IMG/VR virus record: IMGVR_UViG_3300010234_000001
Span: 50,612-114,611 of that record
From: a virus
Taxonomy: Duplodnaviria > Heunggongvirae > Uroviricota > Caudoviricetes
DNA length: 64,000 bases
Strand: one strand, 5' to 3'
In this document: positions 2,207-16,922 of the stretch, piece by piece
Layout: every line of letters begins with the position of its first letter
Numbering within the stretch: position 1 is the stretch's first letter
Program-made: the position numbers and the translations under genes
The notes under the pieces: model-generated
Told to the model about the DNA's origin: nothing
The model's input: the letters and a program-made list of their open reading frames with translations, nothing else
Databases searched by the model: none

Positions 2207-2265
2207 TGATTTGCCTTTCCTATTCCCAAACTGTCCGGATGTTTTACACTACGGAATCCGGCATG

Positions 2266-2517
2266 TCAACCCCAATGGATAGGGGACAGCACCTTTATTT
2301 TCCCGTCAACCCGATTTGCGACATATGCCGGGACATTATAGCATGTGCCGAGTCGCGTTGCGTATGCCTTAGTATGCGAATATTCCGCCTCGCCAATCTG
2401 GAATCCGTTCGCATCCATTTTCTGGATTGTCCACATTTTGATTTCGGAATTGAACCAAACATCCACATGGTGCAACGGTCCAACCGTATCAAACGTCTTA
2501 ACATTCAGAATCCGCAT
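2266..2517 (-). CDS. Hypothetical protein, 83 aa
   Basis: Follows palindromic promoter 2537-2589 and RBS. Confidence 0.65.
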   Translation of the reverse strand: MRILNVKTFDTVGPLHHVDVWFNSEIKMWTIQKMDANGFQIGEAEYSHTKAYATRLGTCYNVPAYVANRVDGKIKVLSPIHWG

Positions 2518-2588
2518 AGCCCTGATTTCCTTTTCTATTCCCGATATGGTCCAGTCTTTTTATATGACCATATCGGGAATGTCAACCC

Positions 2589-3188
2589 CTACAGGTCACC
2601 TTTTGCGTGATTTTTCCCTTTCGTCGTGATCGCGCCACGCTTGTTGAGGTAACCGCCATCGATCAAACTAGCCTTAGCGGCTTCCCACTGGACACGCGTC
2701 GGAATGGTCGCACCTTCCCGATACCGAAGCGTATTGCAAGCCATAACGAATCTATCGCGCCCGTTATGGGACGATTTCAGGCTACGAGCGGCAATCAAAA
2801 CGATCCGCTCAATTTCGGAAAAATGAACGGTTTCGGGAAGGCGAATCGCATTGATCGAATCCGGATGCACGTATATCGTGATTCCGACATCCTTACCCTG
2901 AAAAATGGTATGGCGCACAATGGCATAATTCGGAACCATGGTAAAGGAACGATCCGCCTTTGGATCGCGCATTGCGAGCATACCGGATTCGGTATCGTCC
3001 AGTGACACGGATTCGCCCGTTGTCATATTCACAACGCGGAACGTGTCGCGGCTTCCGCCATTCCATGCGCCATGGTCAAAAGGAATCTGAAAATTGCCGG
3101 TTACGGCAATCTTGAACTTGCGGCCGGTATAGAAATCCGGAATCAGAATCGACGGAACGTCATTCCGTTCAACGTGAATATAATTCAT
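2589..3188 (-). CDS. Hypothetical protein, about 199 aa (start re-set to MNYIHVERN)
   Basis: ATG 3188 follows promoter 3208-3257 and RBS; the track start runs through the promoter. Confidence 0.7.
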   Translation of the reverse strand: MNYIHVERNDVPSILIPDFYTGRKFKIAVTGNFQIPFDHGAWNGGSRDTFRVVNMTTGESVSLDDTESGMLAMRDPKADRSFTMVPNYAIVRHTIFQGKDVGITIYVHPDSINAIRLPETVHFSEIERIVLIAARSLKSSHNGRDRFVMACNTLRYREGATIPTRVQWEAAKASLIDGGYLNKRGAITTKGKNHAKGDL

Positions 3189-3228
3189 TTGACTTGTTCC
3201 TTTCGATTTCCCAAACTGTCCGAGTGTT

Positions 3229-3579
3229 TTACACGACGGAATCCGGAAAGTCAACCCGTTGTTTTGAGATAATGTCGGATTCTTTGAATGCAACCTGACA
3301 TTGACCCTTGATTATGTTTTCCACCTCATATTCAAAAAAGTGGTATCCATGCCGTGTTAATGCGCGCAATTCGAATCGATTAAACCAACGATTCATCTGG
3401 CGAATCGAGCCGAATCCGAATCGCATATCTTGAGTTATGAAATTGATTCCGTCCCTTTCCGGCAATGGGTGGCGTAGCTGGCTTTGGTGATCGCCATGCA
3501 AATTATAATATCCAAGACGATTCGGCCCGTTATACGGACCATAACCGTTTTTATCCTCGATTCGGTATAACCGCGCCAT
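3229..3579 (-). CDS. Hypothetical phage protein, 116 aa
   Basis: Coupled to upstream ORF (TAATG overlap); YRIE..G.GPY pattern typical of small phage proteins. Confidence 0.7.
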   Translation of the reverse strand: MARLYRIEDKNGYGPYNGPNRLGYYNLHGDHQSQLRHPLPERDGINFITQDMRFGFGSIRQMNRWFNRFELRALTRHGYHFFEYEVENIIKGQCQVAFKESDIISKQRVDFPDSVV

Positions 3580-3848
3580 TATTCGTCGCCTAGCCCTACG
3601 TCATCCAGCCATGCCAGCCGGTGACCATCCGCCCAATGATCGAAATCCGTCGAACCGGCCGGATAAGGGTTATCCGTTTTTCCGGCAAAATACGCGTCAT
3701 ACCCATAATTGCGCACATCATCGGCCCGAATCATGCGGTAATGCGCCAACGCCTTATCCTTATCCGTAGTGGAGAGAACCGCCTTGTCGCCGCGCCAAAC
3801 CTGATAGGCGTAAGGGTAGCAAGAATCAATTACAATGCGGGAATTCAT
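3579..3848 (-). CDS. Hypothetical protein, 89 aa
   Basis: Start re-set to MNSRIVID after repeat 3875-3920. Confidence 0.65.
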   Translation of the reverse strand: MNSRIVIDSCYPYAYQVWRGDKAVLSTTDKDKALAHYRMIRADDVRNYGYDAYFAGKTDNPYPAGSTDFDHWADGHRLAWLDDVGLGDE

Positions 3849-3919
3849 GGGTCCGTTTTCCTTTCCGGTCCGTCTTTCGATGATTGTGTTATCCCACACT
3901 GTCAGGCGAGAGTCAACCC

Positions 3920-4324
3920 CTATTCATCCGAATAATCGGAATCTTCATAAGTGGCCAAATCGGCCGCAAGGGAATCCGACACGCCAGTTTCGAAAGCTTC
4001 CCACAAATCATCCGCGACCGGATCGTTATCGCCCCTGTCGCCATCGTAACCGGCCGAATTGAATTCGTGCGCAGTGAATTCAAAGGGCGAATAGCTACGC
4101 GAATTGGATTCCGCCTCATAACAAAGGCTGGCATGCACTTCGCGCGCATCGTCAACCGTTTCAACCGTAACGCGGCCATCCGAATCCGTCCAATAGGTTT
4201 CACCCATGGACGGGACATTGTGGCAAGCAATCCCGTGCGCATGGTTCCAACCCGAGCGATAAGCATCGGCCAGCACGTCATTGGATGCGAATTCGGCGGG
4301 AATCGTGCTAGGAAAATTAGGCAT
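3920..4324 (-). CDS. Hypothetical acidic protein, 134 aa
   Basis: Start MPNFPST after repeat 4350-4395; stop abuts the next repeat. Confidence 0.7.
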   Translation of the reverse strand: MPNFPSTIPAEFASNDVLADAYRSGWNHAHGIACHNVPSMGETYWTDSDGRVTVETVDDAREVHASLCYEAESNSRSYSPFEFTAHEFNSAGYDGDRGDNDPVADDLWEAFETGVSDSLAADLATYEDSDYSDE

Positions 4325-4376
4325 AATCAAGAGTCCTTTTCTGTCCGTCTTTCGATGATTGAAATATGCCACACTG

Positions 4377-4544
4377 TCAGGCGAGAGTCAACCCCTCATA
4401 TGGGCCAATCCGCAAAGCATTGCAGAAACCCGAAAAACAGAAACGCGGATATCGAATCCCATTATCATTTTCCCACACATCCGCATCATATTCCGAATCG
4501 AAAACATAGTAAACATATCCATCCGTATGATAGACAATCCGCAT
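4377..4544 (-). CDS. Hypothetical protein, 55 aa
   Basis: Start MRIVYH after repeat 4567-4609; stop lies inside the next repeat. Confidence 0.55.
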   Translation of the reverse strand: MRIVYHTDGYVYYVFDSEYDADVWENDNGIRYPRFCFSGFCNALRIGPYEGLTLA

Positions 4545-4613
4545 GTGTTTTCCCTTCCCTTGTTTCCGATGATTGGAATATGCCACACTGTCAGGCGAGA
4601 GTCAACCCCTCAT

Positions 4614-4793
4614 CTAAGGATATTTGATTTTATCGGCCGGGACAGCAAAAGACGTGCGCGCGCCAACCGTATCGAAAGACACGGTATAAACGATCCGGAA
4701 TCCGTCAAACGACGTTTTGTCCCGGATCGTAACTGGACGATTAACCCCGTAGGACGAATCCGTAACGATAACGGTATCACCAATATTGAACAT
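4614..4793 (-). CDS. Hypothetical SH3/KOW-like protein, 59 aa (MFNIGDTVIV...), not in ORF track
   Basis: After repeat 4815-4858 and RBS; F.IGD.V motif. Confidence 0.6.
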   Translation of the reverse strand: MFNIGDTVIVTDSSYGVNRPVTIRDKTSFDGFRIVYTVSFDTVGARTSFAVPADKIKYP

Positions 4794-4852
4794 GATTTGC
4801 GTTCCTTTTCCGCGTTTCGATGATTGGACTATCCCACACTATGCCGGGACTG

Positions 4853-5104
4853 TCAACCTATTTCTGCAATTTCTTCCGTCCAGTGTTCCGCAACCTCTTC
4901 CCAATTGACATTTTCCATTTCGTCGCGGGACATGTCGCACGTTCCTTCCGGGAACAACCCGCACGCGAATTCTTTTGCTTCCCACTCGTCAACCGACAGG
5001 CGACGCTTCAAAAAATTAAACTTCGCGTCATAGCTCCATTCATCATTGTCAATGTGAAGCATGATATTCCACGTTTCGTAATTTGTCCAGCCGTTATAAG
5101 CCAT
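4853..5104 (-). CDS. Conserved phage hypothetical protein (YNGWTNYETW family), 83 aa
   Basis: Recognisable N-terminal motif; repeat 5126-5171 upstream. Confidence 0.75.
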   Translation of the reverse strand: MAYNGWTNYETWNIMLHIDNDEWSYDAKFNFLKRRLSVDEWEAKEFACGLFPEGTCDMSRDEMENVNWEEVAEHWTEEIAEIG

Positions 5105-5170
5105 GCGTCCGTTTCCTTTTCTGTCTTTCGATGATTGGAATATGCCACACTGTCAGGCGAGAGTCAACCC

Positions 5171-5389
5171 CTATTCCGAATAATATTTGGAATAAAGCGA
5201 AGCGATAAAATCCGCGTCTTCATGCGCTACCGCGTCAACCGACGCAATGGAAATCATGTCAACAGTAGAGTTTTCCGCCTTGATGCGCTTTGCGGCCTTT
5301 TCCGCGACGGTCCGATTCGTCATGATGAAAACCGCGTTAGGCATGGTTTTGAACGCAACATAAACCCGCATGAGAACCTTATCAGTCAT
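5171..5389 (-). CDS. Hypothetical protein, 72 aa
   Basis: Lies between repeats 5414-5453 and 5126-5171. Confidence 0.65.
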   Translation of the reverse strand: MTDKVLMRVYVAFKTMPNAVFIMTNRTVAEKAAKRIKAENSTVDMISIASVDAVAHEDADFIASLYSKYYSE

Positions 5390-5599
5390 TTGATATTTCC
5401 TTTCCGTTGCTTCCGATGATTAGAATATGCCACACTGTCAGACGAAAGTCAACAGGGAAAATGAAAAAAGATTCGATCCGTTTTAAGCGCCGTTGACGGG
5501 GTTTCCCAATAGGGCGGACAACCCCTAGGCCATTGGCCGGAACCCCGTCAACGGGCACGACAAGCGCTTAAACGGACAGGAAAAGCGCTTGCCTTATTG

Positions 5600-5836
5600 C
5601 TAGTCCGTTACCGGAACGGCCGGGACGGGCAGAATCCGAAGATTCCCGCAACCCTCCGCAACAATCTTGTTCAATTCGCGGGACTGACTCGCGTTTGCGT
5701 TGACAACCTCGCCGGAAATCACGTCAACAGTCTGCCACTTGCCAGCCTTGCCAGCCTTGGAAGGGTAATCACGGCCGATTGCCTTGTAACCCCACGAATA
5801 AGCCTTTCCGCCGATTGTCGCATACCAGTTAGTCAT
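5600..5836 (-). CDS. Hypothetical protein, 78 aa
   Basis: Start MTNWYAT after repeat 5857-5902. Confidence 0.6.
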   Translation of the reverse strand: MTNWYATIGGKAYSWGYKAIGRDYPSKAGKAGKWQTVDVISGEVVNANASQSRELNKIVAEGCGNLRILPVPAVPVTD

Positions 5837-5901
5837 TTTTTGCATTCCTTTCCGCGTTTCGATGATTGTGTTATGCCACACTGTCAGGCGAGAGTCAACC
5901 C

Positions 5902-6108
5902 CTAACCTTGAACAATTACCGAATATTTGATGTCATCCGGCAAAATTTCTTCAACAAGCTTACGCGCCGCCGTGTCAATCCCGTTTGTCAGCATGTCGCA
6001 AGTTTCCGGCCAATGGGAATCTTCCCACGATTCAGCGGTATTCGGAACCTTGGAAGATTCCACCCTAACCGTTACCGTGATGTGCTTCAAAATATCCGTG
6101 TCAGTCAT
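5902..6108 (-). CDS. Hypothetical protein, 68 aa
   Basis: After repeat 6121-6168; stop abuts the next repeat. Confidence 0.6.
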   Translation of the reverse strand: MTDTDILKHITVTVRVESSKVPNTAESWEDSHWPETCDMLTNGIDTAARKLVEEILPDDIKYSVIVQG

Positions 6109-6297
6109 GCTTGTTTCCTTTCCGATTTGATGCGCAAGTTATCGCACGCGGCGCGACAAGAGTCAAGCGCTAATTTGCGAAATCCTGATATATTTCATAT
6201 ATCGTTTCGGTTGTGGCGTCTATCCTTTCCCAATTAGGGGTTAAGTAGTATGCGGCAACCGCGCCGCATACTATCCAAAAAATAAATCGATCCGTTG

Positions 6298-6540
6298 TCA
6301 CTTTGCCATGCCAGTGTCAACAAAACCGTCCGCAATCACAACGCGAGTTCCGCCGCTACCTTCGTATGGCATGCGCACAACCTCAAACTTATCGCGGCCG
6401 GTAAACTCGTCATAAAAGAGGCGAGTCTGAATCTTCCCCTGCCAGCTTTGTGCTTCGGTAACGATATCAGTCTTTTTCGTACCAAGACGCGAGGCAACCG
6501 ACTTGCCGCTACCCTGAATCGTTCCGCGAAAATGAGCCAT
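6298..6540 (-). CDS. Conserved phage hypothetical protein, 80 aa (MAHFRGTIQG...SRLG)
   Basis: After repeat 6566-6610 and RBS. Confidence 0.7.
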   Translation of the reverse strand: MAHFRGTIQGSGKSVASRLGTKKTDIVTEAQSWQGKIQTRLFYDEFTGRDKFEVVRMPYEGSGGTRVVIADGFVDTGMAK

Positions 6541-6626
6541 GTCTGTTTTCCTTTCGGGTTGTCTGTTTCGATGATTGGAATATAGCAAGGGTTGACCGGA
6601 TTGTCAACCCTTTTTTTTTCACTGTT

Positions 6627-6923
6627 TTACCAGTACCATTCTTCGGGCAATTCCAAGCCAACCGGAATCAGGAACACGTCACCATTCTGGTAAACAGTGT
6701 ATTCGATTCCGGTTTTCGGCATGGTAATGACCGCGTTATTCAACACGGAATCCCACGCTTCCCAATACCACTCGCCATCCGGACCGGCCTCAAGCGTAGC
6801 CCAATCCGAATCAGACAAGCCCGACACGCAATCGCGCGAAACCTCTTCCGCGAAGTTTTGCGGAATGAAAACGCCACGATTGGAGTCGAAAAGAATCTCA
6901 ATATCGTTTTCAGTGTAAGCCAT
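6627..6923 (-). CDS. Conserved phage hypothetical protein, 98 aa (LFDSNRGVFIPQNFA)
   Basis: After repeat 6950-6995. Confidence 0.7.
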   Translation of the reverse strand: MAYTENDIEILFDSNRGVFIPQNFAEEVSRDCVSGLSDSDWATLEAGPDGEWYWEAWDSVLNNAVITMPKTGIEYTVYQNGDVFLIPVGLELPEEWYW

Positions 6924-6987
6924 GAGTCCGTTTCCTTTCGGGTTGTCCGTTTCGATGATTGGACTATGCCATACTATGGCGGGACTG

Positions 6988-7185
6988 TCAACCCCTATAA
7001 CCAAACATTTCCGCAATGGCAATTTCGCCCGGTGTCAATCGGCGATAGCTGGCGAATTCTTCCGCACATTTGCGGATTTCCGCGCCGGAAATTGCGGAAC
7101 ACATTTGACGTTCGGTTGCGGTATGGCAAAGCGCCAAGTCCGCCAGATGCGCCTCATGCAATTGCTTAATGTTCCAAGCTTTCAT
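6988..7185 (-). CDS. Hypothetical protein, 65 aa
   Basis: After repeat 7205-7250. Confidence 0.6.
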   Translation of the reverse strand: MKAWNIKQLHEAHLADLALCHTATERQMCSAISGAEIRKCAEEFASYRRLTPGEIAIAEMFGYRG

Positions 7186-7254
7186 GTCCGTTTACCTTTC
7201 TTCGTTTCGATGATTGTGTTATGCCATACTCAAAGCGGCATGTCAACCCCTATT

Positions 7255-7530
7255 TTAGCAAATGATCGTGCCGATTTTGTATGATTCGCCATCGTCGCAA
7301 ATCTGAATCACGACGCCAGAAAAGAATGAATCGCCCTTGAATCCATGCCAGCCGGGAAACGAATTGGTATATTCGAATTCGGACATGTGATACCACGATC
7401 CGCGATACTTGAAAAAACCGTCCGTTGCCTCATCGGGGCTAAGCCAATCGAATTCGGATTTCATGACATCGGCCGGAACATCAAGCCAATACTTGAATTC
7501 ATGCCACTTGTTATCCGTCGTGGTAATCAT
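7255..7530 (-). CDS. Conserved phage hypothetical protein, 91 aa (FFKYRGSWYHMSEF...W.G...DSFFSG)
   Basis: After repeat 7558-7598. Confidence 0.7.
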   Translation of the reverse strand: MITTTDNKWHEFKYWLDVPADVMKSEFDWLSPDEATDGFFKYRGSWYHMSEFEYTNSFPGWHGFKGDSFFSGVVIQICDDGESYKIGTIIC

Positions 7531-7572
7531 GTGATTTTGTCCCTTCCTGTCCGCCCGTTCGATGATTTGAAT

Positions 7573-7839
7573 CTAGCGCATTAAATCCGGATTGTCAATC
7601 GCTTTATTGAGGCAATGGCGAATGAAATCCTTTTCCAGCAACGCGCCGTGCACAACGCTAATCCGATCCATGCCGGATTCAAACTTGGCAAACTTGGCAT
7701 TGAAAAGCACCTTGCGAACCTTGATAGCGTCCGCCCGGTCAATGCCGCCAAGCTCCATCAAAACCTCGTCAAAATTGCGATTCGCGTTGTCAATGCGATC
7801 AGCAAAAATCTTTGCAGTATTCTTGATTGCGTCCGTCAT
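7573..7839 (-). CDS. Hypothetical protein, 88 aa
   Basis: After repeat 7861-7906. Confidence 0.6.
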   Translation of the reverse strand: MTDAIKNTAKIFADRIDNANRNFDEVLMELGGIDRADAIKVRKVLFNAKFAKFESGMDRISVVHGALLEKDFIRHCLNKAIDNPDLMR

Positions 7840-7922
7840 TTGTTATGAATCCCTGTCCGGTTTCGATGATTGGAATTTAGCAAGGGTTGACCGGATTGTC
7901 AACCCCTTTTTTTCATTTTTTC

Positions 7923-8225
7923 CTACCGCAGCACAAGCCGGTGAATTCGCTTGCGGCTACTAGGCGTCACGTTGTCCGGAATATGCAGCGAACGCGTTTC
8001 CTGCGCACCCGTAAAGAATTCAGACGAATTGTAAACGGAAATCCAACGTGCGCCTTCCACGTTCGAATCGTTCGCCTCAATTCCGCCAACGTGAATCGTG
8101 CGAGTCTGGAAAAGAAAATCAATAGCCTCGCGTAGCGTCACGTTGCGCGCAATCATGCCACGTTCGGCACAATCACCATATGATGCAGACTCTGGCGTCA
8201 CAATCTCGTATGAAACACTAAACAT
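7923..8225 (-). CDS. Hypothetical protein, 100 aa (YEIVTPESA..GD family)
   Basis: After repeat 8248-8293. Confidence 0.7.
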   Translation of the reverse strand: MFSVSYEIVTPESASYGDCAERGMIARNVTLREAIDFLFQTRTIHVGGIEANDSNVEGARWISVYNSSEFFTGAQETRSLHIPDNVTPSSRKRIHRLVLR

Positions 8226-8296
8226 TCCCGTTCCTTTCCTGTCCGTCTTTCGATGATTGTGTTATGCCATACTCTGCCGGGACTGTCAACCCCGTT

Positions 8297-8647
8297 TTAG
8301 AGCAAAACCGCAATATTTGACGGAACGTCATTTTCGGAAATCATACCGAAACGAATCAGATCGGCATACGCGCAAGCCTCATCGTTTTCAACCTGCCATG
8401 CTTCCGACCCATAGGCGTTTGAGTGGAATTGCCAATGTTCAATATTAATGGTCCCGCGTTCCTTTACGCGCTCCACAAGCCGGTTTGCCAGCATTTCCGC
8501 ACGATCCCCGCCGAAATCTTCCGCGAATATATGGGAATGAGTCCAGCGGGAACCGTCAACAGCCTCACAAAAAACAGTATATTCGGGCGCGTTGTCAACC
8601 CCATGAATCCATTCAACCGACTTAACCTTAAGAATCATGGTTTGCAT
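8297..8647 (-). CDS. Hypothetical protein, 116 aa
   Basis: After repeat 8664-8708. Confidence 0.65.
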   Translation of the reverse strand: MQTMILKVKSVEWIHGVDNAPEYTVFCEAVDGSRWTHSHIFAEDFGGDRAEMLANRLVERVKERGTINIEHWQFHSNAYGSEAWQVENDEACAYADLIRFGMISENDVPSNIAVLL

Positions 8648-8909
8648 TCCTTTTCTGTCCGTCTTTGATGGTCCGGAACCTAGCAGGCTCCGGACCGATT
8701 GTCAACCCATTACGTGAACATTTTTTTATTCTCCGTTGTTTGAGTAAACATTACGCGTCATTTCCATTCATTTAATTGGTTTCTCAAGCTAAAAGGTTAA
8801 ATCCTAGCTAGGGCCATGTCATGTTAGAATCTCCTATAAGTAAGGAATAACTAGTTTTAGGTAAAAGGCAGTTTAATGACTTACCCTAGGTCAATTCACG
8901 ATCCGGAAC

Positions 8910-9101
8910 CTACCAGACTCCGGACCGATTTAGACTATCGTAAAGCCGCTGGTATTCGGCTTTCATGTCCGCAAGCTTTGCGTATGCCATTGCGTCGCGC
9001 CCCTGTCCATGCTGCCAGATAACGGCCGCAGCAAGGTCATATGTTGCCGTTGCGTGCTCGCCTTCAAAAGCAATATTCATTGCTTCGCTCAAGTCCATCA
9101 T
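8910..9101 (-). CDS. Hypothetical protein, 63 aa
   Basis: Start MMDLSEA after repeat 9120-9163. Confidence 0.6.
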   Translation of the reverse strand: MMDLSEAMNIAFEGEHATATYDLAAAVIWQHGQGRDAMAYAKLADMKAEYQRLYDSLNRSGVW

Positions 9102-9157
9102 GATTGAGTCCTTTCCGTGTTTCGATGATTGGAATATTGCACGTTTTGATTCGCGTG

Positions 9158-9457
9158 TCAACCGAATCTGGACATAAAAACCGTTTTCGGCCATTCCGAA
9201 AACGTATCAAACGAGATAAGCCCGGAACCAAAATTGTAGTCAATAGATCGCACGAATTCCTTAGCCAATTCAATCGGAATTGCCGTTTCACCTTCCACGA
9301 TTCGAATGACTTCAACAAGCGCCATGCGGGGAACAATATGGCGCATAGACCTGATAATCGCAATCTTGCGAGAGTTATCATGAATCGTTATCCGCGCCGA
9401 ATTAAGTTCAACATTCGATTCAGTGTAAGAAATCATTCCATGCCAGTCATTTTTCAT
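9158..9457 (-). CDS. Hypothetical protein, 99 aa
   Basis: After repeat 9481-9523. Confidence 0.6.
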   Translation of the reverse strand: MKNDWHGMISYTESNVELNSARITIHDNSRKIAIIRSMRHIVPRMALVEVIRIVEGETAIPIELAKEFVRSIDYNFGSGLISFDTFSEWPKTVFMSRFG

Positions 9458-9527
9458 AATTGAGTCCTTTCCTGTCTATCTTTCGATGATTGGAATATTG
9501 CACGTTTTGATTCGCGTGTCAACAAAA

Positions 9528-9582
9528 AAATGCCGGTCATGCGATCACGGCTTTTGAGTCCACTCACACACAACCGGCATTT
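9528..9582 (-). terminator. Terminator-like stem (10 bp, large loop) followed by U-run
   Basis: aaatgccggt 9528-9537 / accggcattt 9573-9582; plus-strand A-run 9524-9530 gives a U-tract on the minus strand. Confidence 0.55.
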
Positions 9583-9665
9583 GATCCCGAAATCCGCATA
9601 GCTTCCACTAGTCAAACCTAGCTACCTCACAATGCGGCGTTCACCATTAAAGCTATTCGGGAAAC

Positions 9666-10151
9666 CTAGAAATTATAATCATGAAACTTTACCGGATTTT
9701 TGCTTGCCCTATAAAGTCCCTGCGCCCAACCCTTAGCACCGAGTCGCACCTTGGAAGCGCTGCCACAAATGCCGCCATAAATCCACTGTTGCTCCCGGTT
9801 ATTCGTGCAATGACCGGCAAAACCGCCCGGAACGATTTCCGGCTTCCATTCCGGATTTCGCTTTGCTTCAACCGGCGCAATCGTCACGGTTTTGCCACTC
9901 TTCGTAATCGCAATAACCTTGAACGGATTCACGTCCGAAAACAAGTGCTGATTGATATAATCACCGACTTTCACTTCGCGGCCGACCATGTAACGATCAA
10001 TTGCAAAACTTGTCTTAATCACAACCGGCACGATTCCCGTAAGCGCACGGCCAATCCTTTCGGCTTCGATTGCGGCATCTTCGGCCGTTTCAAATCGTCC
10101 GAATTCGGGCAGCGGAATATATGAGCCGTTATCGCGTTTCGTGTCAATCAT
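9666..10151 (-). CDS. Hypothetical phage protein, 161 aa
   Basis: Start MIDTKR after palindromic repeat 10175-10217. Confidence 0.7.
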   Translation of the reverse strand: MIDTKRDNGSYIPLPEFGRFETAEDAAIEAERIGRALTGIVPVVIKTSFAIDRYMVGREVKVGDYINQHLFSDVNPFKVIAITKSGKTVTIAPVEAKRNPEWKPEIVPGGFAGHCTNNREQQWIYGGICGSASKVRLGAKGWAQGLYRASKNPVKFHDYNF

Positions 10152-10225
10152 GATTGAGTCCTTTTCTGTCCGTCTTTCGATGGTCCGGAGCCTACTAGGC
10201 TCCGGACCGATTGTCAAGCGGTTTT

Positions 10226-10396
10226 TTATCGCGTGGAAATCCACCGATTAACGCGCGACTCCGGATGCGTATCGTTCATAAACTTGGCGTGGTCCAGAAG
10301 AAACGCGTTGACATTGTAACCCGCCTTTGTAACGCGTTCCTTAATTTCCGTAATGTTAAGGTCGCTCTCACGATTCGACTTATATTCGTAAGACAT
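10226..10396 (-). CDS. Hypothetical protein, 56 aa, not in ORF track
   Basis: After repeat 10413-10455 and an AGGAAA RBS. Confidence 0.55.
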   Translation of the reverse strand: MSYEYKSNRESDLNITEIKERVTKAGYNVNAFLLDHAKFMNDTHPESRVNRWISTR

Positions 10397-10433
10397 TTGA
10401 TTTCCTTTCTTGTTTCGATGATTTGGTTATAGC

Positions 10434-10661
10434 CTAACGATTCGCCTTTGTCAAGCTATTATTTCGGACTTGTTCCAATGCATCCGCCATAGTGGAACGA
10501 TAGCCTAGAATCTTCCAACGTTGCCGCCCGTTGACGGTTGTGTAAGGCTCCACCTTGGCAAACATTGAAATCCAAGGCTCTTCCGTAATCAGGTAAGCGT
10601 TAAGCGCTTCCACGGCTGATATTTCGGACGTAAAACCGGAATCTACAATGATTTCCACCAT
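10434..10661 (-). CDS. Hypothetical protein, about 75 aa
   Basis: Third gene of the 11009-11051 unit; ATG lies just after the previous stop. Confidence 0.55.
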   Translation of the reverse strand: MVEIIVDSGFTSEISAVEALNAYLITEEPWISMFAKVEPYTTVNGRQRWKILGYRSTMADALEQVRNNSLTKANR

Positions 10662-10665
10662 AGCA

Positions 10666-10878
10666 TTAACAATAAAGTTCGTTAGCGTCAACCTTATAGT
10701 AACGCCCGACCGTCATGTTGCTCCGCATGTCTTTAATTGAGGCAAAATCGTTTTCGTCTGGCATGCTGAATCCGAGTGAATTCAATTCCGCTAGCATTCC
10801 TTCATATGAATCGAATGACGAAACCGAATCACGCTCGACTCCGTCATCCCAAAATGTCATGATAACAACCCAATGCAT
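10666..10878 (-). CDS. Hypothetical protein, 70 aa
   Basis: Start MHWVVIM immediately after the ArfA-like stop. Confidence 0.55.
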   Translation of the reverse strand: MHWVVIMTFWDDGVERDSVSSFDSYEGMLAELNSLGFSMPDENDFASIKDMRSNMTVGRYYKVDANELYC

Positions 10879-10879
10879 C

Positions 10880-10987
10880 TTACCAATCCTTTCGCTTACG
10901 ATTGTAAGAACCCTTCCCCTTGCGAGGCTTGATTTTCTTCGGCCGATACACGGCCGTCCGAACCATCTTGGCAATCGGATTTTTCAT
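10880..10987 (-). CDS. arfA: Minimal alternative ribosome rescue factor A (ArfA)-like peptide, 35 aa
   Basis: MKNPIAKMVRTAVYRPKKIKPRKGKGSYNRKRKDW aligns without gaps to the E. coli ArfA core [29 protein letters not shown] (as remembered); GGGAG RBS; own promoter 11009-11051. Confidence 0.75.
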   Translation of the reverse strand: MKNPIAKMVRTAVYRPKKIKPRKGKGSYNRKRKDW

Positions 10988-11081
10988 GTCTGAATCTCCC
11001 TGTCCGCGTTTCGATGATTCGGTTATAGCCTAACGATTCGCCCTTGTCAAGCACTAATAATACGTGGTTTTTATCGAATCA

Positions 11082-11381
11082 TTAAAAAAAAAGGTCGTCG
11101 TCCATTTCATATTCTTCATCCGTAAAAAAATGCTTATCCCATGCGTGAATCATGCCGAGTCCCATGGAATCCGAATGCATTGCGCCACCATGCAGCGCAG
11201 AAAAGCGGCCATCTTCGGCAATCCGCCAGATCACACTTTCCCAATCCGAATCGGACTTCACAACGATTCCAATTCCATCAAAGAAAAACCGGCCATGATA
11301 ATTTGGACGAACTTCGATATTAATATCGAGCGCCATATTAATCAGGAAGTCAAGAAATTCACTTCTATTAACCTTGTCCAT
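11082..11381 (-). CDS. Hypothetical acidic protein, 99 aa
   Basis: RBS present; DSMG motif seen in small phage proteins. Confidence 0.65.
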   Translation of the reverse strand: MDKVNRSEFLDFLINMALDINIEVRPNYHGRFFFDGIGIVVKSDSDWESVIWRIAEDGRFSALHGGAMHSDSMGLGMIHAWDKHFFTDEEYEMDDDLFF

Positions 11382-11383
11382 GT

Positions 11384-11560
11384 TTAGTTCCTTTCAATCA
11401 GAGTAAGATACCACGGGTCATAGTATCCGTCAACCCCCCCAAAAAATACTTTATACTGGATATTTCCATAAATATCCAGCGGATCAACTAGCGTAACAAC
11501 GCCAATAAAACCCGTAGACTCTTCCCGAACAATATCACCAACTTTAAATTCTGTATTCAT
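11384..11560 (-). CDS. Hypothetical SH3/KOW-like protein, 58 aa (MNTEFKVGDIV...), not in ORF track
   Basis: After repeat 11577-11618; FKVGD.V motif. Confidence 0.6.
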   Translation of the reverse strand: MNTEFKVGDIVREESTGFIGVVTLVDPLDIYGNIQYKVFFGGVDGYYDPWYLTLIERN

Positions 11561-11618
11561 CGGTTTCCCTTTCTAGTTCGATGGTCCGGTTATAGCCTAA
11601 CGATTCGCCCTTGTCAAG

Positions 11619-11828
11619 CTACATTTTGATCTTTTGTGAAATCTTTTCATAGGTGTCGCCAAGGGGATACCGGCCGAGAATCAAATCACCATTCGGCAAT
11701 CGAATCCACTTCAACTTACTCCATGTCTCTTTTTCATCCATAAGCATATCGGTTGCAAAATCAATGTTAGCATTGACCGAATACGAAATCACACGCTCGC
11801 CAGAATCATCGTATGTGTAATTTACCAT
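11619..11828 (-). CDS. Hypothetical protein, 69 aa
   Basis: Operonic ORF; stop abuts the next repeat. Confidence 0.55.
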   Translation of the reverse strand: MVNYTYDDSGERVISYSVNANIDFATDMLMDEKETWSKLKWIRLPNGDLILGRYPLGDTYEKISQKIKM

Positions 11829-11831
11829 GGG

Positions 11832-11999
11832 TCAAGACTCATCTTGGCGTGCTAGTTCCCTCTGGCGTTCGGCGATGGCGGCCCAAAGGTGTCTGCGGGC
11901 GAGGGCAGACACAAAGGCGGATTCCCGTTGCCAGAAAGCCGCGTCGGACACGTCGGCTGTCTCTGGCGGCATATCGTCAAGATACTTATTCAAAGTCAT
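11832..11999 (-). CDS. Hypothetical protein, 55 aa, not in ORF track
   Basis: AGGAG RBS; fills the gap between neighbouring genes. Confidence 0.55.
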   Translation of the reverse strand: MTLNKYLDDMPPETADVSDAAFWQRESAFVSALARRHLWAAIAERQRELARQDES

Positions 12000-12022
12000 T
12001 GGATTTGCTCCTATGTTGCAGT

Positions 12023-12292
12023 TTAAACGATTTCAAACATTGGTGCGGTAGCACTGGCGACAACCTCGCCGCCATAGACGTTCCGAATAACCTCAAACTT
12101 GCTGATATGCGGAACATATCCGGACAACTCCGACACGCGCCAGTTAGCACCGCCCGGTTGAAAGGATTTGTTGTAATCCTTCCTAGTCTGTTCCGCCCTA
12201 GCATCGGACGGGCGACCCTTCCACATGATATCATGCCAGCCCTTTTGATCACGATATCGGGCGCGATACTTCGGAGTGATTGACTTACCCAT
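12023..12292 (-). CDS. Hypothetical phage protein, 89 aa
   Basis: Start MGKSITP after repeat 12314-12356. Confidence 0.65.
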   Translation of the reverse strand: MGKSITPKYRARYRDQKGWHDIMWKGRPSDARAEQTRKDYNKSFQPGGANWRVSELSGYVPHISKFEVIRNVYGGEVVASATAPMFEIV

Positions 12293-12356
12293 TGTCCGTT
12301 TTCCTTTCCAACGTTTCGATGGTCCGGTTATAGCCGAACGATTTGGCTTTGTCAAC

Positions 12357-12602
12357 TCATGTTTCCAAGCCGGGCGGACGAATACTAATGACGGTTTCGA
12401 CCAGTTCACTAAGATCATCGCCGACAATGGCCCATGGGCCATTACTTCCATCTTCGGAAGGCAACTCGGAATCGTCATACGGCTCGCATACCATAAACTT
12501 GCCTGAAAATTTTGTGTTGATACGGAAATCCCGTTTCCCTACTATCCATCCGCGATTGCGAATAAATTCAATTTTTTCAGTCAAACTCGCATCGATTTTC
12601 AT
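12357..12602 (-). CDS. Hypothetical protein, 81 aa
   Basis: Start MKIDASL after repeat 12624-12669. Confidence 0.6.
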   Translation of the reverse strand: MKIDASLTEKIEFIRNRGWIVGKRDFRINTKFSGKFMVCEPYDDSELPSEDGSNGPWAIVGDDLSELVETVISIRPPGLET

Positions 12603-12679
12603 GATGTCAGGTTCCTTTCCTCGTTTCGATGGTCTGGAACCTAAACGATTTCGGACCAATTGTCAACCCTTTTTTTGGG

Positions 12680-12883
12680 TTACTCGCCGGAATCCATGAA
12701 GGCTTGAAATCCATCCTCAAGAGCTTGGACAAGCTCCGGATTGTTCCTTACTGATATCTGTAAAGCACCAACAACGCCAATAAAGATTTCCGTGATTGCC
12801 TCATCGTCGCCAATGATATCAAACAACTCCATACCACCGCAAAAAGCATCACGCATAAGACCAACTTTAGTTTCGCTATCCAT
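12680..12883 (-). CDS. Hypothetical protein, 67 aa
   Basis: AGGAG RBS before MDSETK. Confidence 0.6.
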   Translation of the reverse strand: MDSETKVGLMRDAFCGGMELFDIIGDDEAITEIFIGVVGALQISVRNNPELVQALEDGFQAFMDSGE

Positions 12884-12994
12884 AACAAAGTTCTCCTGTT
12901 TTTTTGTGTGAAATTGGACCGGGGACGCCAAACCCCGATAAATCGATTCGCCGCATTCGCTTCGGCATTCCAATTATTGAAGCTATCGCGTCCC

Positions 12995-13210
12995 CTAGCT
13001 GGCTTCAATTGGCTTGATTCGAAGGACAGAGTCCCCGCGAATCGAATTCAGTGAACCGTTCTGACCGAAATTGACCGGCACCTTGGAACCATCGTCAAGA
13101 GTGGCAACCCATGCGCCAGCCTTGCCGCCCTTCGGCCAATCACGCTCAATTGCGACATAACCCCAAGCCGCAGTCTTTGCGGCAATCGCGTTGCGCCACT
13201 CTTTTGCCAT
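12995..13210 (-). CDS. Hypothetical protein, 71 aa
   Basis: GAAGGGA RBS. Confidence 0.55.
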   Translation of the reverse strand: MAKEWRNAIAAKTAAWGYVAIERDWPKGGKAGAWVATLDDGSKVPVNFGQNGSLNSIRGDSVLRIKPIEAS

Positions 13211-13273
13211 GATTATATCCCTTCAAATGTTCGGGTTAAGGCGGGGATTCGTTCCCCGCCTTAACCCATGCCG

Positions 13274-13456
13274 TTACTCGCTCGCGTGCTCCGCGATCTT
13301 CGCAACCAGATCGGCCGAAATCTCGACGCGCGAACCGTCCTTTGCGACCAGCGACACGTTGCCGTTGTCCTCATCCGCAAACACGATGTGCGGGACGAAC
13401 TCCACCGGAACCCGAGTGCCGCGAGTCTTGAAAAGCTGAAGAGTGTTCTCGTTCAT
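13274..13456 (-). CDS. Hypothetical protein, 60 aa
   Basis: After repeat 13495-13538. Confidence 0.55.
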   Translation of the reverse strand: MNENTLQLFKTRGTRVPVEFVPHIVFADEDNGNVSLVAKDGSRVEISADLVAKIAEHASE

Positions 13457-13692
13457 GATATTTTCCTTTCCTGTTATGGGCGGGTCATCCGCCCTTTCGA
13501 TGATTGGAATGTAGCCTAGTCCGATCCGAATGTCAACCGATTTTTTAAGTTTCGTTCGATTTTTTTTCTGACTGGTCCAAGCCGCTTCCCTTTGGCCGGG
13601 GGACGCTTCATCGCCCTTCCGATGATTAGAATATAGGGGAACCCGATTCGAAAGTCAACACCTATTTTCACTTTTTTCGGACAACATGACAT

Positions 13693-13730
13693 AAAAAAAG
13701 AGTGATGCGGGCATAGTCCCGCATCACTCT
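13693..13730 (-). terminator. Rho-independent terminator after ardA
   Basis: 13-bp stem agagtgatgcggg 13699-13711 / cccgcatcactct 13718-13730 plus U-run on the minus strand. Confidence 0.8.
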
Positions 13731-13763
13731 ATGTCTCACCGGTCGGCACAACCTCTAAACACC

Positions 13764-14303
13764 CTACCCCGGCGAGAAAACCCAAGTATAACCATTATAT
13801 TCGTGGAACGTCCAACCATCGTAACTCATATCGCGGGCCATCTTTTCGTAATCGATGTAATTTTCCAGATGTTCCGGAATGTTCGACGTTTCCAGAGTGA
13901 TTTCGCGCGCAAAGTCGGCGGGCCAATTAAACTTGCCATGATACGAATCGCGCGCTTCATCAATATAACCATTTTCATCAATGGCACACTGATATACATC
14001 AATCAACTCGCGGTCATCATCATCCAGATTGATGTAATTATCCCACAAATCCGAATCAATGTGATCAATGATTGGAGTATCGCCATTATTTTTGATGAAG
14101 CTATCCGGAACACCATGGGCGGTCATGATGCGAACGGCAACGTCCCCGTCATGTTCCTCAAGTCCAAGGGATTCGCGAACCTCTTCATTCATATCATCCC
14201 AATCAGTTACGGATTCAAGATCATACCAAACGGACGGCTTGCCTGCATTGATGCGGGTGGCCGTGTTGACACAAATTGCGAATTCGGCGTTTTCCATTTT
14301 CAA
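13764..14303 (-). CDS. ardA: ArdA-like antirestriction (DNA-mimic) protein, 179 aa
   Basis: Highly acidic; C-terminal Y.G.F....DFA.E......IPE.L..YIDYE..ARD motif of ArdA. Confidence 0.8.
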   Translation of the reverse strand: MKMENAEFAICVNTATRINAGKPSVWYDLESVTDWDDMNEEVRESLGLEEHDGDVAVRIMTAHGVPDSFIKNNGDTPIIDHIDSDLWDNYINLDDDDRELIDVYQCAIDENGYIDEARDSYHGKFNWPADFAREITLETSNIPEHLENYIDYEKMARDMSYDGWTFHEYNGYTWVFSPG

Positions 14304-14357
14304 TTCTCCATGTCCGTCGTTTTGATGATTGTGTTATAGCCGAACGAATCCGCATTG

Positions 14358-14582
14358 TCAAGCGGATTTTGCGAATCCGGCCATGTAAGTGATAGCACCA
14401 AACACCACCCAAAGAGGCGCATTGATTCCAAGCGGCTCTAGAATGGAGTAGAAAATCCAACCAAACCCGAGAATCTGAATCACGAATCCATTGACCGCGC
14501 CGATCATGAAACCGGCAATCGGAATGAAAACGACCCTTATCGCCAACTCAATAAAAACTGAAAACCGCGATTCGTCTGCCAT
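14358..14582 (-). CDS. Small membrane protein, 74 aa
   Basis: Hydrophobic helices; after repeat 14605-14647. Confidence 0.6.
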   Translation of the reverse strand: MADESRFSVFIELAIRVVFIPIAGFMIGAVNGFVIQILGFGWIFYSILEPLGINAPLWVVFGAITYMAGFAKSA

Positions 14583-14672
14583 AATTGTGTGTGCTCCATT
14601 TCCGTTTTGATACACACAACATAGGGCAAACGAATCACAATGTCAAGCGAAAAAAAGGAAAAGACCGCAAAA

Positions 14673-14747
14673 TGGTGCACCCTATATCCGGGAATCGAAC
14701 CCGAAAATGAACAGTATAAAAGACTGCCACCATATCCCAAATTATAG
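14673..14747 (-). ncRNA. Degenerate tRNA-Lys(UUU)-like element
   Basis: T-arm tcggg-TTCGATT-cccgg; anticodon arm gcagt-CTTTTAT-actgt; terminal ACCA; D-arm short and acceptor stem irregular. Confidence 0.5.
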
Positions 14748-14794
14748 CATTTTGCGGCCCCCATCGGGGCTTCAACGCGTTTGAAGTTCCCGAA

Positions 14795-15034
14795 TTACTT
14801 GTTGTTGGTATTCGTCTGAATCGACTTGAAGAATCCGCCCAAGAATCCGAGACCGCCACCAATCTGCCATAGCGGCATGCCGGTGATTCCAAACTTGGAC
14901 AGCAACGCGAGGGCCATCCAGTCCAGCCCGAACAGAGCCAAAACCCAACCGCCGAACATTCCGCCAAGCGTGCCGACCAAAGGCAACACCAGCAAAAGCG
15001 CAACGAAACCCACAGCACCAAGAAATACAACCAT
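14795..15034 (-). CDS. Small Gly-rich membrane protein, 79 aa
   Basis: Hydrophobic and Gly-rich; after repeat 15055-15097. Confidence 0.65.
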   Translation of the reverse strand: MVVFLGAVGFVALLLVLPLVGTLGGMFGGWVLALFGLDWMALALLSKFGITGMPLWQIGGGLGFLGGFFKSIQTNTNNK

Positions 15035-15092
15035 TTTATTTTCCTTTCTGTTACTTTCGATAATTGAAACCTAGCACAAGGCTAGTGGCTTG

Positions 15093-15302
15093 TCAAGTGA
15101 AAAATCCGGCAATCGCCGCGACTAGCAGGCTTCCGCCAACCAGAATCGGCCCGACGAATATCGCGTACCCTAGCCATGCCATGCCAGCACCGGGACCGGG
15201 CGGTAGAATTGCGGTTTCCAATCCCGGAACGAACAATACCACGTAAGGAATTGCGAATAACCCGGCTAAAACTAGCGCTATAACTTGTACTGCACGCATC
15301 AC
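15093..15302 (-). CDS. Small membrane protein, 69 aa
   Basis: Two hydrophobic segments; 4-nt start/stop overlap with upstream gene. Confidence 0.6.
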   Translation of the reverse strand: MMRAVQVIALVLAGLFAIPYVVLFVPGLETAILPPGPGAGMAWLGYAIFVGPILVGGSLLVAAIAGFFT

Positions 15303-15709
15303 GAAACTCTTTCCAATTCGCCGCGCAAGATGGCGGAACGGGTTTCCAGTCTAATCAATTCGGCTAGTTTCGCTGCCATTTCTTCGGCTTGTTTCGTTCT
15401 GATCGATTCATTATACACTTCCGTTATACGAGCCAAACGGGTGTCTCTGTTTCGAGAAAAGAATCTCCGAGGTAGATAATGCGTTTCCGTATTAAAACAA
15501 CCGTATGACGATAGGTCTTGAACAATTTGCACATTCCGACCACAATCTCTCCAATCATAAACCCCATGACAAATCGCAATATTGAATATATCACAATAAT
15601 CCGAAAAGACTTTATCAACATGATCATCCGTCAAAAAATCTTCCGGAACGCGTCCGGTCCCATTACAATGCGGGCATTCAATTGTATCGCACATTTTACC
15701 ATCCTTCAT
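15299..15709 (-). CDS. Hypothetical protein with CPHCNGTG zinc-finger-like motif, about 136 aa
   Basis: DnaJ-type CxxCxGxG motif; operonic. Confidence 0.6.
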   Translation of the reverse strand: MKDGKMCDTIECPHCNGTGRVPEDFLTDDHVDKVFSDYCDIFNIAICHGVYDWRDCGRNVQIVQDLSSYGCFNTETHYLPRRFFSRNRDTRLARITEVYNESIRTKQAEEMAAKLAELIRLETRSAILRGELERVS

Positions 15710-15917
15710 CGATAAGGTTTTGCAAGGCATCCAAAGCATTTGGAACGCTTTCGATATCCGGAACGGTTACGGAATTATATTCCGCATGAACAAAATTTGA
15801 AACACTTTCGTTGCAATATTTGACAATCACTTTAGCCTCATTTTCGTGGCTTACCGGAACGATCTTATCGAATCCGGAACGACGAAAATGAATCCTTACT
15901 TTGTAGTACGTGCTCAT
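15696..15917 (-). CDS. Hypothetical protein, 73 aa
   Basis: Overlapping operonic ORF. Confidence 0.55.
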   Translation of the reverse strand: MSTYYKVRIHFRRSGFDKIVPVSHENEAKVIVKYCNESVSNFVHAEYNSVTVPDIESVPNALDALQNLIDEGW

Positions 15918-16123
15918 AGCATGCCATCCTTTCCGCGTGCGAGGAACATGAAAATCTCAATTTCTATGTCCCTTATACCATCACAACGACTGACTGTCAA
16001 GCCATGTTCGTCACAATATTCGAGAATCATATCGGCCATAACCCCGGCGTGTTCCGAGAATGGATGATCGATATTTTCCATCGCTTCCAGCATGGCATTG
16101 CCTTCCCGGTTACGAATTGTCAT
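15914..16123 (-). CDS. Hypothetical protein, up to 69 aa
   Basis: Overlapping operonic ORF. Confidence 0.55.
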   Translation of the reverse strand: MTIRNREGNAMLEAMENIDHPFSEHAGVMADMILEYCDEHGLTVSRCDGIRDIEIEIFMFLARGKDGML

Positions 16124-16277
16124 GGCTCAATTCCTTTACAAGATCATCCGCGCTATACCCTTGCGCAAAGCACATTGCAACCCAATGCCTGTACTCATCG
16201 AAGTTTTCAACAAGATCGACTGGCGGAATGGCGGCATAAACCCGCTCAAAGTCAAGAATTCCGTAAAACTTAACCAT
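16110..16277 (-). CDS. Hypothetical protein, 55 aa, not in ORF track
   Basis: After repeat 16300-16345 and a GGAG RBS. Confidence 0.55.
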   Translation of the reverse strand: MVKFYGILDFERVYAAIPPVDLVENFDEYRHWVAMCFAQGYSADDLVKELSHDNS

Positions 16278-16337
16278 TTTTATGTCTCCGCGTTTGCTGT
16301 TTCGATGATTGGAATATAGCGGAACGGAATCGACTTG

Positions 16338-16922
16338 TCAACCCCGTTCCGCAGGATTATTTTGATCGATCATGTTATTAAGCGACTCGTGAAAGGACTC
16401 ACCTATTTCATACCCATCATCATATACGGCATCAAGGTCAATAGCAGCATCATCCTTCGCCGCCTCTTCCTCGTCTCGTTTCTCCAACCAAGCCGCATAT
16501 TCGTTCAATGGACCACTGTATATTACCGTGGAACCATCCCGCACGGACATATGAATCAGTCGCGTTTCTGTAAGAAAATTGCTCGGACGGTTTCCTTCAA
16601 CCCATAGCTTGTAAGTAAATTCCTCCATTTCCGAATCATCCGGCTTGTTGATGTAAACGTTGCCAGCTTCGGCACCAGCACCAGCACCAGCACCAGCACC
16701 ATTCTTCAAATCGTGAATAAGAACGGCAGCGGCACAATCAATACCATTGACGCACGACATGCGATCATCCGAAATGCCATTGACAAGCTTTCGGTGCGCC
16801 AGACTATTGTAAATATCCATACCTATTCCATCCGGTTGGCCGTCATACTGACGATAAATACTTACAAGCACATCGCCCGAGTAATTATCCTGATAAATGT
16901 GAATGATTGAACGTGTTCCCAT
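16338..16922 (-). CDS. Conserved phage hypothetical protein (MGTRS...IY...DG.P family), 194 aa
   Basis: Recognisable N-terminal motif; contains a (GA)n insert. Confidence 0.7.
   Translation of the reverse strand: MGTRSIIHIYQDNYSGDVLVSIYRQYDGQPDGIGMDIYNSLAHRKLVNGISDDRMSCVNGIDCAAAVLIHDLKNGAGAGAGAGAEAGNVYINKPDDSEMEEFTYKLWVEGNRPSNFLTETRLIHMSVRDGSTVIYSGPLNEYAAWLEKRDEEEAAKDDAAIDLDAVYDDGYEIGESFHESLNNMIDQNNPAERG
16672..16701. repeat. Hexamer tandem repeat (gcacca)x5 encoding an Ala-Gly tract
   Basis: Seen directly. Confidence 0.9.

Follow-up and report, generated by a model that had tools for sequence, protein, structure and literature searches.

ArfA is described as a back-up ribosome-rescue factor that is limited to some beta- and gammaproteobacteria and is held off by tmRNA (PMC8012679). 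The control lies in the design of the gene: premature termination or cleavage leaves an mRNA without a stop codon, and through tmRNA the factor is kept silent (PMC8012679). In E. coli ArfA the segment N14-F25 faces RF2 and the decoding centre (PMC5378476), and the basic C-terminal tail fills the vacant mRNA channel (PMC5378476, PMC8012679). L19, L24 and F25 bind Trp319 of RF2, and the beta-sheet in domain 2 of RF2 is extended by a strand formed from Q27-E30 (PMC5378476, PMC8012679). Residues 2-16 are disordered as long as RF2 is closed, and a minidomain with Ile11 packed on Ala18 forms as RF2 opens (PMC5378476, PMC8012679). BrfA in Bacillus subtilis and ArfT in Francisella are likewise small peptides in which a basic C-terminus probes the mRNA channel and a class-I release factor is recruited (PMC8012679, PMC6881298). 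They are not homologous to ArfA, and the phage peptide described here matches the ArfA HMM and not those families.

A survey of 2,376 alphaproteobacterial genomes found ArfA in none of them (PMC11633108). Among phages, g10 of Citromicrobium phage RXM is an ArfA gene by annotation (PMC8953757), and gp30 of pelagiphage HTVC027P, which has a PF03889 domain, is reported to be highly expressed both early and late in infection (PMC12753301), which is counted in favour of a rescue function for the gene described here. The literature found on phage ArfA genes consists of annotation mentions, with no functional test. The phage mini-ArfA is thus already known as an annotated class, to which the present gene adds another copy. 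Since annotated members exist in GenBank phages, this locus alone brings only a modest gain.

The window analysed here, a stretch of 64,000 nucleotides, corresponds to bases 50612-114611 of a virus record of 178,611 bp with terminal repeats. The ArfA-family gene comprises 35 codons on the minus strand (10880-10987), with ATG at 10987 and the stop codon TAA at 10882-10880, and there is no in-frame start upstream of this ATG in the ORF. A Shine-Dalgarno sequence, GGGAG, is found at 10996-11000, 8 nt before the ATG, and relatives in other viral contigs have GGGAG or AGGAGG at the same distance from the start. Further upstream, between the stop of the preceding gene (11082) and the ArfA-like ORF, a pattern match gives a -35 hexamer TTGACA (11045-11050, minus strand) followed after 17 nt by a -10 hexamer TATAAC (11022-11027), which leaves a leader of about 21 nt between TATAAC and GGGAG. 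The pattern TTGAC-N18-TATAAY, with one mismatch allowed, has 21 matches in the window compared with 3.1 expected, and none of 100 shuffles of the window reaches 21. The minus-strand interval 2241-16341 contains sixteen of the matches. Three copies, at 10426, 11022 and 11589, are near-identical across a stretch of about 50 nt that takes in the spacer as well as the beginning of the leader.

The original prediction had called the 35-amino-acid ORF the first gene of its unit, with a GGGAG ribosome-binding site and a promoter of its own, and all of this holds, including the translation given for the minus strand. The promoter is of the sigma70 type, and because repeated copies of it bound the unit, the ArfA-like gene is the first of three ORFs. 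The second encodes 70 amino acids (10666-10878, minus strand) and has its ATG at 10878, 1 nt after the ArfA stop. The third, of about 75 amino acids (10434-10661, minus strand), has its stop inside the next promoter copy, a near-identical repeat found by the pattern match (10426-10454, minus strand) that ends the unit. Neither of these two ORFs has any match in Pfam or PHROG. A 16-bp hairpin with five G-U pairs and a 5-nt loop, and with no U-run after it, lies on the minus strand at 10813-10849 within the second gene of the unit. The gene would be an early one, because of the promoter type and because it belongs to a run of small genes that covers 17 kb of the minus strand. This run is divergent from the structural genes.

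By its sequence, the peptide is a reduced homologue of bacterial ArfA. A search against the Pfam ArfA family (PF03889) had been named as the way to check the proposed ArfA-like identity, and it confirms it with 37.3 bits against a cut-off of 25.5 bits (E 1.9e-9), which is far past chance even with the few thousand small ORFs in the window. The alignment places peptide residues 3-33 on profile positions 12-42 of 44 and leaves positions 1-11 unmatched. A six-frame search of the whole genome with PF03889 again gave a score above the cut-off (32.4 bits), and the peptide is the sole match in the 178.6-kb genome. NCBIfam has no family for the peptide, and in PHROGs the matches were weak, none better than E 0.003, and the families concerned have no known function.

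The peptide aligns without gaps to residues 14-44 of E. coli ArfA (chains 5mgp, 7oj0, 5u4i, 5mdv and 5h5u), so that residues correspond with an offset of 11. N3, I5, K7, M8 and V9 stand at N14, I16, A18, L19 and L20; A12, V13, Y14 and R15 stand at P23, L24, F25 and R26; P16-I19 cover Q27-E30, and K23-Y28, R30 and K31 match K34-Y39, R41 and K42. Codons 3-14 (N3-Y14; 10946-10981, minus strand) are accordingly the counterpart of the short helix and hydrophobic patch at N14-F25, and codons 23-28 (10904-10921, minus strand) encode KGKGSY, the core of the basic tail. The phage peptide and E. coli ArfA (YhdL; 5MGP, 5MDV, 5U4I, 5H5U, 7OJ0) are alike in the KGKGSY.RK tail, the aromatic residue at F25, R26, the equivalents of I16 and L20, and the layout, in which a short helix leads into a basic tail that is extended. 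They differ in that E. coli ArfA has the minidomain residues (about 1-13), Ala18 where the phage has Lys, and Pro23 where the phage has Ala; 72 amino acids are encoded in E. coli, about 55 of them in the mature form, compared with 35 in the phage.

The window peptide is close to the consensus of its subfamily. A logo of 148 motif-bearing cluster representatives shows strong conservation, in E. coli numbering, of N14, P15, I/V16, A17, K/R18, L20, Y/F25, R/K28, V/I29, V30, K31 and the KGKGSY.RK block, and within KGKGSY the percentages are K 97, G 100, K 87, G 100, S 97 and Y 77 or F 22. The window has the commonest residue of the subfamily at N3, P4, I5, A6, K7, R10, T11, Y14, R15, P16, K20 and P21, and likewise throughout KGKGSY and at R30 and K31. 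Such conservation bears on the suggestion that this is a small basic peptide of ArfA ancestry that binds the ribosome or RNA in a role unrelated to non-stop rescue, for example in translation initiation or ribosome stability. The shortness of the peptide, its richness in lysine and arginine, and the fact that function in the phage copies is assigned from sequence would all fit that suggestion. However, the conservation is position-specific along the whole ArfA core and goes beyond charge, and the N-P motif and KGKGSY stand exactly as far apart as in E. coli ArfA, which makes an unrelated role very unlikely.

The features that contact or activate RF2 are retained in part. The hydrophobic patch is present in the window as M8, V13 and Y14 at the L19, L24 and F25 positions. 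In the subfamily, the L19 and L24 positions are not hydrophobic and only the F25 position is consistently so, which counts against a rescue function. The equivalent of Q27-E30 is P16-K17-K18-I19 in the window, and the subfamily consensus P/Q-R-V/I-V is rich in beta-branched residues. When the peptide and its alignment were modelled with AlphaFold2, residues 4-9 formed a helix and the rest was extended (mean pLDDT 75, about 83 over the first 20 residues); the isolated peptide has no strand at P16-I19 in the model, and the model agrees with ArfA, although as evidence this is weak. The predicted complex of the peptide, with alignment, and E. coli RF2 has a score of 0.02 (mark 0.32), which gives the complex no support and does not speak against it. 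The N-terminal minidomain is almost wholly missing, since only two residues precede the N14 equivalent. Ile11, Thr7, Lys8 and the fold-back part of the minidomain are lacking and Lys occupies the Ala18 position, and both features are further points against a rescue function. Activation of RF2 is therefore inferred, and the best indirect argument for it comes from cellular members with the same N-terminus that retain the tmRNA-coupled non-stop design.

The same two features are what speaks for a non-activating mimic, that is, a peptide that docks in the empty mRNA channel, perhaps binds closed RF2 and cannot open it. Host rescue by tmRNA-SmpB or ArfB would then be blocked or delayed on non-stop ribosomes, or RF2 would be tied up. 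The A18T variant of E. coli ArfA, which recruits RF2 without activating it (PMC8012679, PMC5378476), is a precedent. The mimic is nevertheless unlikely. Chromosomal relatives with the same short N-terminus and the same A-K pair keep the tmRNA-coupled non-stop design next to prfC, a stop-type copy among the housekeeping genes of SAR11 is hard to square with a poison, and the phage, with a tmRNA of its own, hardly looks like an opponent of rescue. Should the 35 residues suffice to activate RF2, they would define the minimal ArfA and show that phages boost ribosome recycling during infection; should they fail to do so, the peptide would be a natural inhibitor of rescue.

The preferred reading, to which we assign a probability of roughly 60%, is that the gene encodes a constitutive, RF2-dependent rescue factor that would free ribosomes from truncated mRNAs during infection and leave the released peptides untagged. 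Host RNA polymerase would transcribe the gene soon after infection from the sigma70-type promoter. With an ordinary Shine-Dalgarno sequence and a UAA stop, the gene, unlike E. coli-type arfA, does not give rise to a non-stop mRNA; its product would escape tagging and destruction through tmRNA and so accumulate regardless of trans-translation. Going by homology to the solved E. coli complexes, the basic half at the C-terminus (K20-K33), which includes KGKGSY, would enter the vacant mRNA channel at the 3' end of a truncated mRNA, and the helix N3-Y14 together with R15-I19 in the A site would recruit host RF2, leading to hydrolysis of the peptidyl-tRNA. The net effect would be untagged release while mRNAs are being cut, so that the ribosome pool stays free for phage messages. 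The cutting may come from host mRNA decay induced by the phage or from RNA-cleaving defences and toxins; alternatively, ribosomes may reach 3' ends by read-through. A purpose directed against toxins or defence is compatible with the data, and nothing speaks for it specifically.

The stop codon is central to this reading. The length of the ORF after the KGKGSY motif was measured in 40 loci, which were also searched for a hairpin followed by a U-run, and the outcome is bimodal. In stop-type genes the ORF ends 4-16 codons past the motif and a hairpin is absent; these genes are the window gene (7 codons), 14 further viral or phage-like loci and seven Pelagibacteraceae genomes. In non-stop-type genes a GC-rich hairpin with a U-run starts 0-14 nt after the Tyr codon, and the ORF runs on for 14-61 codons past the motif with the hairpin inside it. 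This type is found in alphaproteobacterial MAG chromosomes (L035, L036, L038, L044, L045 and L048), viral contigs (L015, L021 and L023) and two genome loci (L029 and L033). In a copy from Vibrionaceae (L041), whose N-terminus is long and resembles that of E. coli ArfA, the hairpin lies farther downstream.

A normal stop without a regulatory tail had been predicted for the window gene and is what the measurements give: TAA follows KGKGSY by 7 codons, and no terminator-like hairpin was detected within 110 nt by the same script that detected the non-stop-type relatives. Because of this the window gene lacks the E. coli-type non-stop design. Compared with E. coli ArfA it has an ordinary stop and neither an RNase III nor a terminator hairpin, hence no tmRNA control, and it is encoded by a phage behind an early-type promoter. 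A stop-type gene directly encodes a peptide about as long as the one expected from a non-stop-type gene. The peptide is thus probably made without the usual control of the host, and in most of the phage copies that were read the plain stop codon would free ArfA from tmRNA control.

Chromosomal relatives are found in Alphaproteobacteria, and PF03889 matched in 7-8 of 301 genomes in an even sample of this class. Two neighbourhoods are conserved: prfC-mscS-arfA-DUF2336 in MAG loci (L035, L045, L048, L053 and L059, where L053 is the same place as L048) and ykuD-arfA-pfkB-nth-dapB in five SAR11 copies (L032, L034, L039, L040 and L042; Pelagibacteraceae). These neighbourhoods, prfC-mscS and ykuD-pfkB-nth-dapB, identify the copies as cellular genes. 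The alphaproteobacterial genes share with the window the subfamily consensus R-N-P-x-A-x-x-L ... V-x-x-R-K-G-K-G-S-Y, and the SAR11 copies are, like the window gene, short (35-40 amino acids) with ordinary stops. The MAG copies (L035, L045, L048 and L059) differ from it in that their ORF is longer and contains a terminator and that 8-12 basic residues precede the Asn, and both MAG and SAR11 copies, unlike the window gene, are set in conserved cellular surroundings. The form with the short N-terminus is probably active, because its cellular members keep the non-stop design, which is sensible only for a back-up rescue factor (PMC8012679).

The relatives are numerous and widely spread. A tblastn search of GenBank phages with the 35-amino-acid peptide gave no match. 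When the 49-residue stop-to-stop frame was compared with a collection of 5.8 billion proteins, the closest protein was a 41-amino-acid peptide (P0002; 70% identity), and the search also gave one viral locus. The contigs with the 41-amino-acid relative are full of small unknown ORFs. Used as a tblastn query, this relative matched 106 GenBank phage records, among them Brevundimonas jumbo phages with a 39-amino-acid gene annotated as "alternative ribosome-rescue factor", Caulobacter phage Cr30, where the copy is unannotated and located between annotated genes, and Acinetobacter T4-like phages (for example Acj9p003). A pattern scan of IMG/VR added 21 further loci. The 17 relatives that were aligned all match PF03889 (best E 7.7e-16), and a profile built from them rendered 991 clusters at E <= 0.001 among 1.84 billion cluster representatives, many of them 34-50 amino acids long. 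Among the best 150 of the 991 clusters, 41% are 45 amino acids or shorter. Only 7% of the relatives have two or fewer residues ahead of the conserved Asn, and the window copy is among the shortest members. The shorter form of ArfA, without most of the minidomain, is therefore widespread, with roughly 1,000 related clusters, and occurs in many phages.

Several phage copies share features with that of the window. The genes in Brevundimonas phage vB_BpoS-Kabachok (USN14343.1, 39 amino acids), Cr30 and Acj9 are also short, with an N-P-I/A-A start and ordinary stops, and those in Kabachok and Cr30 keep the V-K-x-R-K-G-K-G-S tail, whereas the Acinetobacter-phage copies have lost KGKGSY. The similarity of the annotated and unannotated phage copies to the window is only 48-71% identity, with no neighbour genes in common. 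Kabachok, like the window phage, has a permuted tmRNA.

Comparison of the early region of the window with 40 other ArfA loci showed no shared gene except ArfA, with one exception. A protein of 114-131 amino acids with no Pfam family, located at 6627-7022 in the window (minus strand), is 42% identical to one at 2158-2502 in three viral contigs (L026-L028); there it is encoded directly upstream of the ArfA-like gene, in the window 4 kb away. The ArfA-like gene travels alone, because the other loci have no neighbour genes in common with the window. The gene is thus without a conserved neighbourhood that would tie it to a pathway, which is counted against a rescue function.

A 35-codon ORF might also arise by chance and never be expressed, and beside its small size it could be pointed out that no sequencing run is listed with this DNA (window 9500-12500). 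Against this stand the Pfam E-value, the promoter and Shine-Dalgarno sequence of the gene, and the conservation of the protein at 40-70% identity across unrelated DNA contexts. A chance ORF is hardly credible and is refuted for practical purposes by the PF03889 match, the matches of all 17 relatives and the 991 clusters.

Other translation and rescue genes are present in the same genome. ARAGORN finds 35 tRNAs outside the window. One of them (genome 173919-173991; Rfam tRNA 55.3 bits) has the anticodon UUA and is ochre-suppressor-like. Yet TAA is the commonest stop codon, used by 116 of 212 long ORFs, and it also ends the ArfA-like gene. A tmRNA of the permuted two-piece type, likewise outside the window, is located on the plus strand at genome 33018-33264 (RF04321, 93.4 bits against a cut-off of 47 bits; ARAGORN agrees). 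Its tag frame starts with A-S-N-D-N and ends with F-A-I-A-A, with an unusually long middle, and no SmpB gene was found in the phage genome. A GGQ-domain protein of 142 amino acids is encoded among tRNA genes at genome 2324-2752 (plus strand, outside the window; PF00472, 65 bits). Its match to RF1/RF2/PrfH is confined to domain 3 (RF1 model positions 212-327), and by NCBIfam it is not an ArfB equivalog. The tmRNA, the GGQ protein and the 35 tRNAs indicate an investment in rescue and translation and are counted in favour of a rescue function.

The GGQ protein also raises the question of the partner. Rescue might proceed with this protein, or with RF1 as for ArfT of Francisella, instead of or besides host RF2; an RF-1-domain protein is encoded in the same genome, and the subfamily keeps the RF2-contacting patch of E. 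coli ArfA only partly. On the other hand, the GGQ protein has no match to domain 2, which holds the beta-sheet on which ArfA docks in RF2 (PMC5378476), the two genes are 59 kb apart, and an RF-1-domain match is absent in four of the five other ArfA-carrying phage records and weak, below the cut-off, in the fifth. A partner other than host RF2 is therefore quite unlikely.

To judge from the genes present, the three rescue-related genes and the possible ochre suppressor form a coherent picture, though the parts are scattered over the genome. It is possible, though doubtful, that the mini-ArfA, the permuted tmRNA and the GGQ protein constitute a phage-borne rescue kit that is needed as the phage itself drives ribosomes to the 3' ends of mRNAs. 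This would be a viral take-over of ribosome recycling by constitutive, untagged, RF2-dependent release, possibly in a host lineage without ArfA, and not a passive copy of a host gene. The idea is drawn from the UUA tRNA in a genome with TAA nevertheless as its commonest stop, and from the probable degradation of host mRNA by a T4-like phage. Co-occurrence of tmRNA and ArfA is not a rule, because a tmRNA was found in only two of the seven ArfA-carrying records examined, of which this genome is one.

The large plus-strand ORFs encode T4-type baseplate, sheath, terminase, portal and scaffold proteins. The portal (PF07230, E 2.8e-170) shares no more than 50-55% identity with its counterparts in T4-like phages of the cyanophage, Pelagibacter, Methylophilales and Stenotrophomonas groups, and the phage is therefore a distinct T4-like lineage. 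A megablast search of window 8000-14000 against phages gave no match. GANTC is not depleted, with 763 sites compared with 661 expected. CCWGG and GGATCC have zero sites in the whole phage genome (178,611 bp), although the base composition predicts about 200 CCWGG sites; certain restriction or modification sites thus seem to be strongly avoided.
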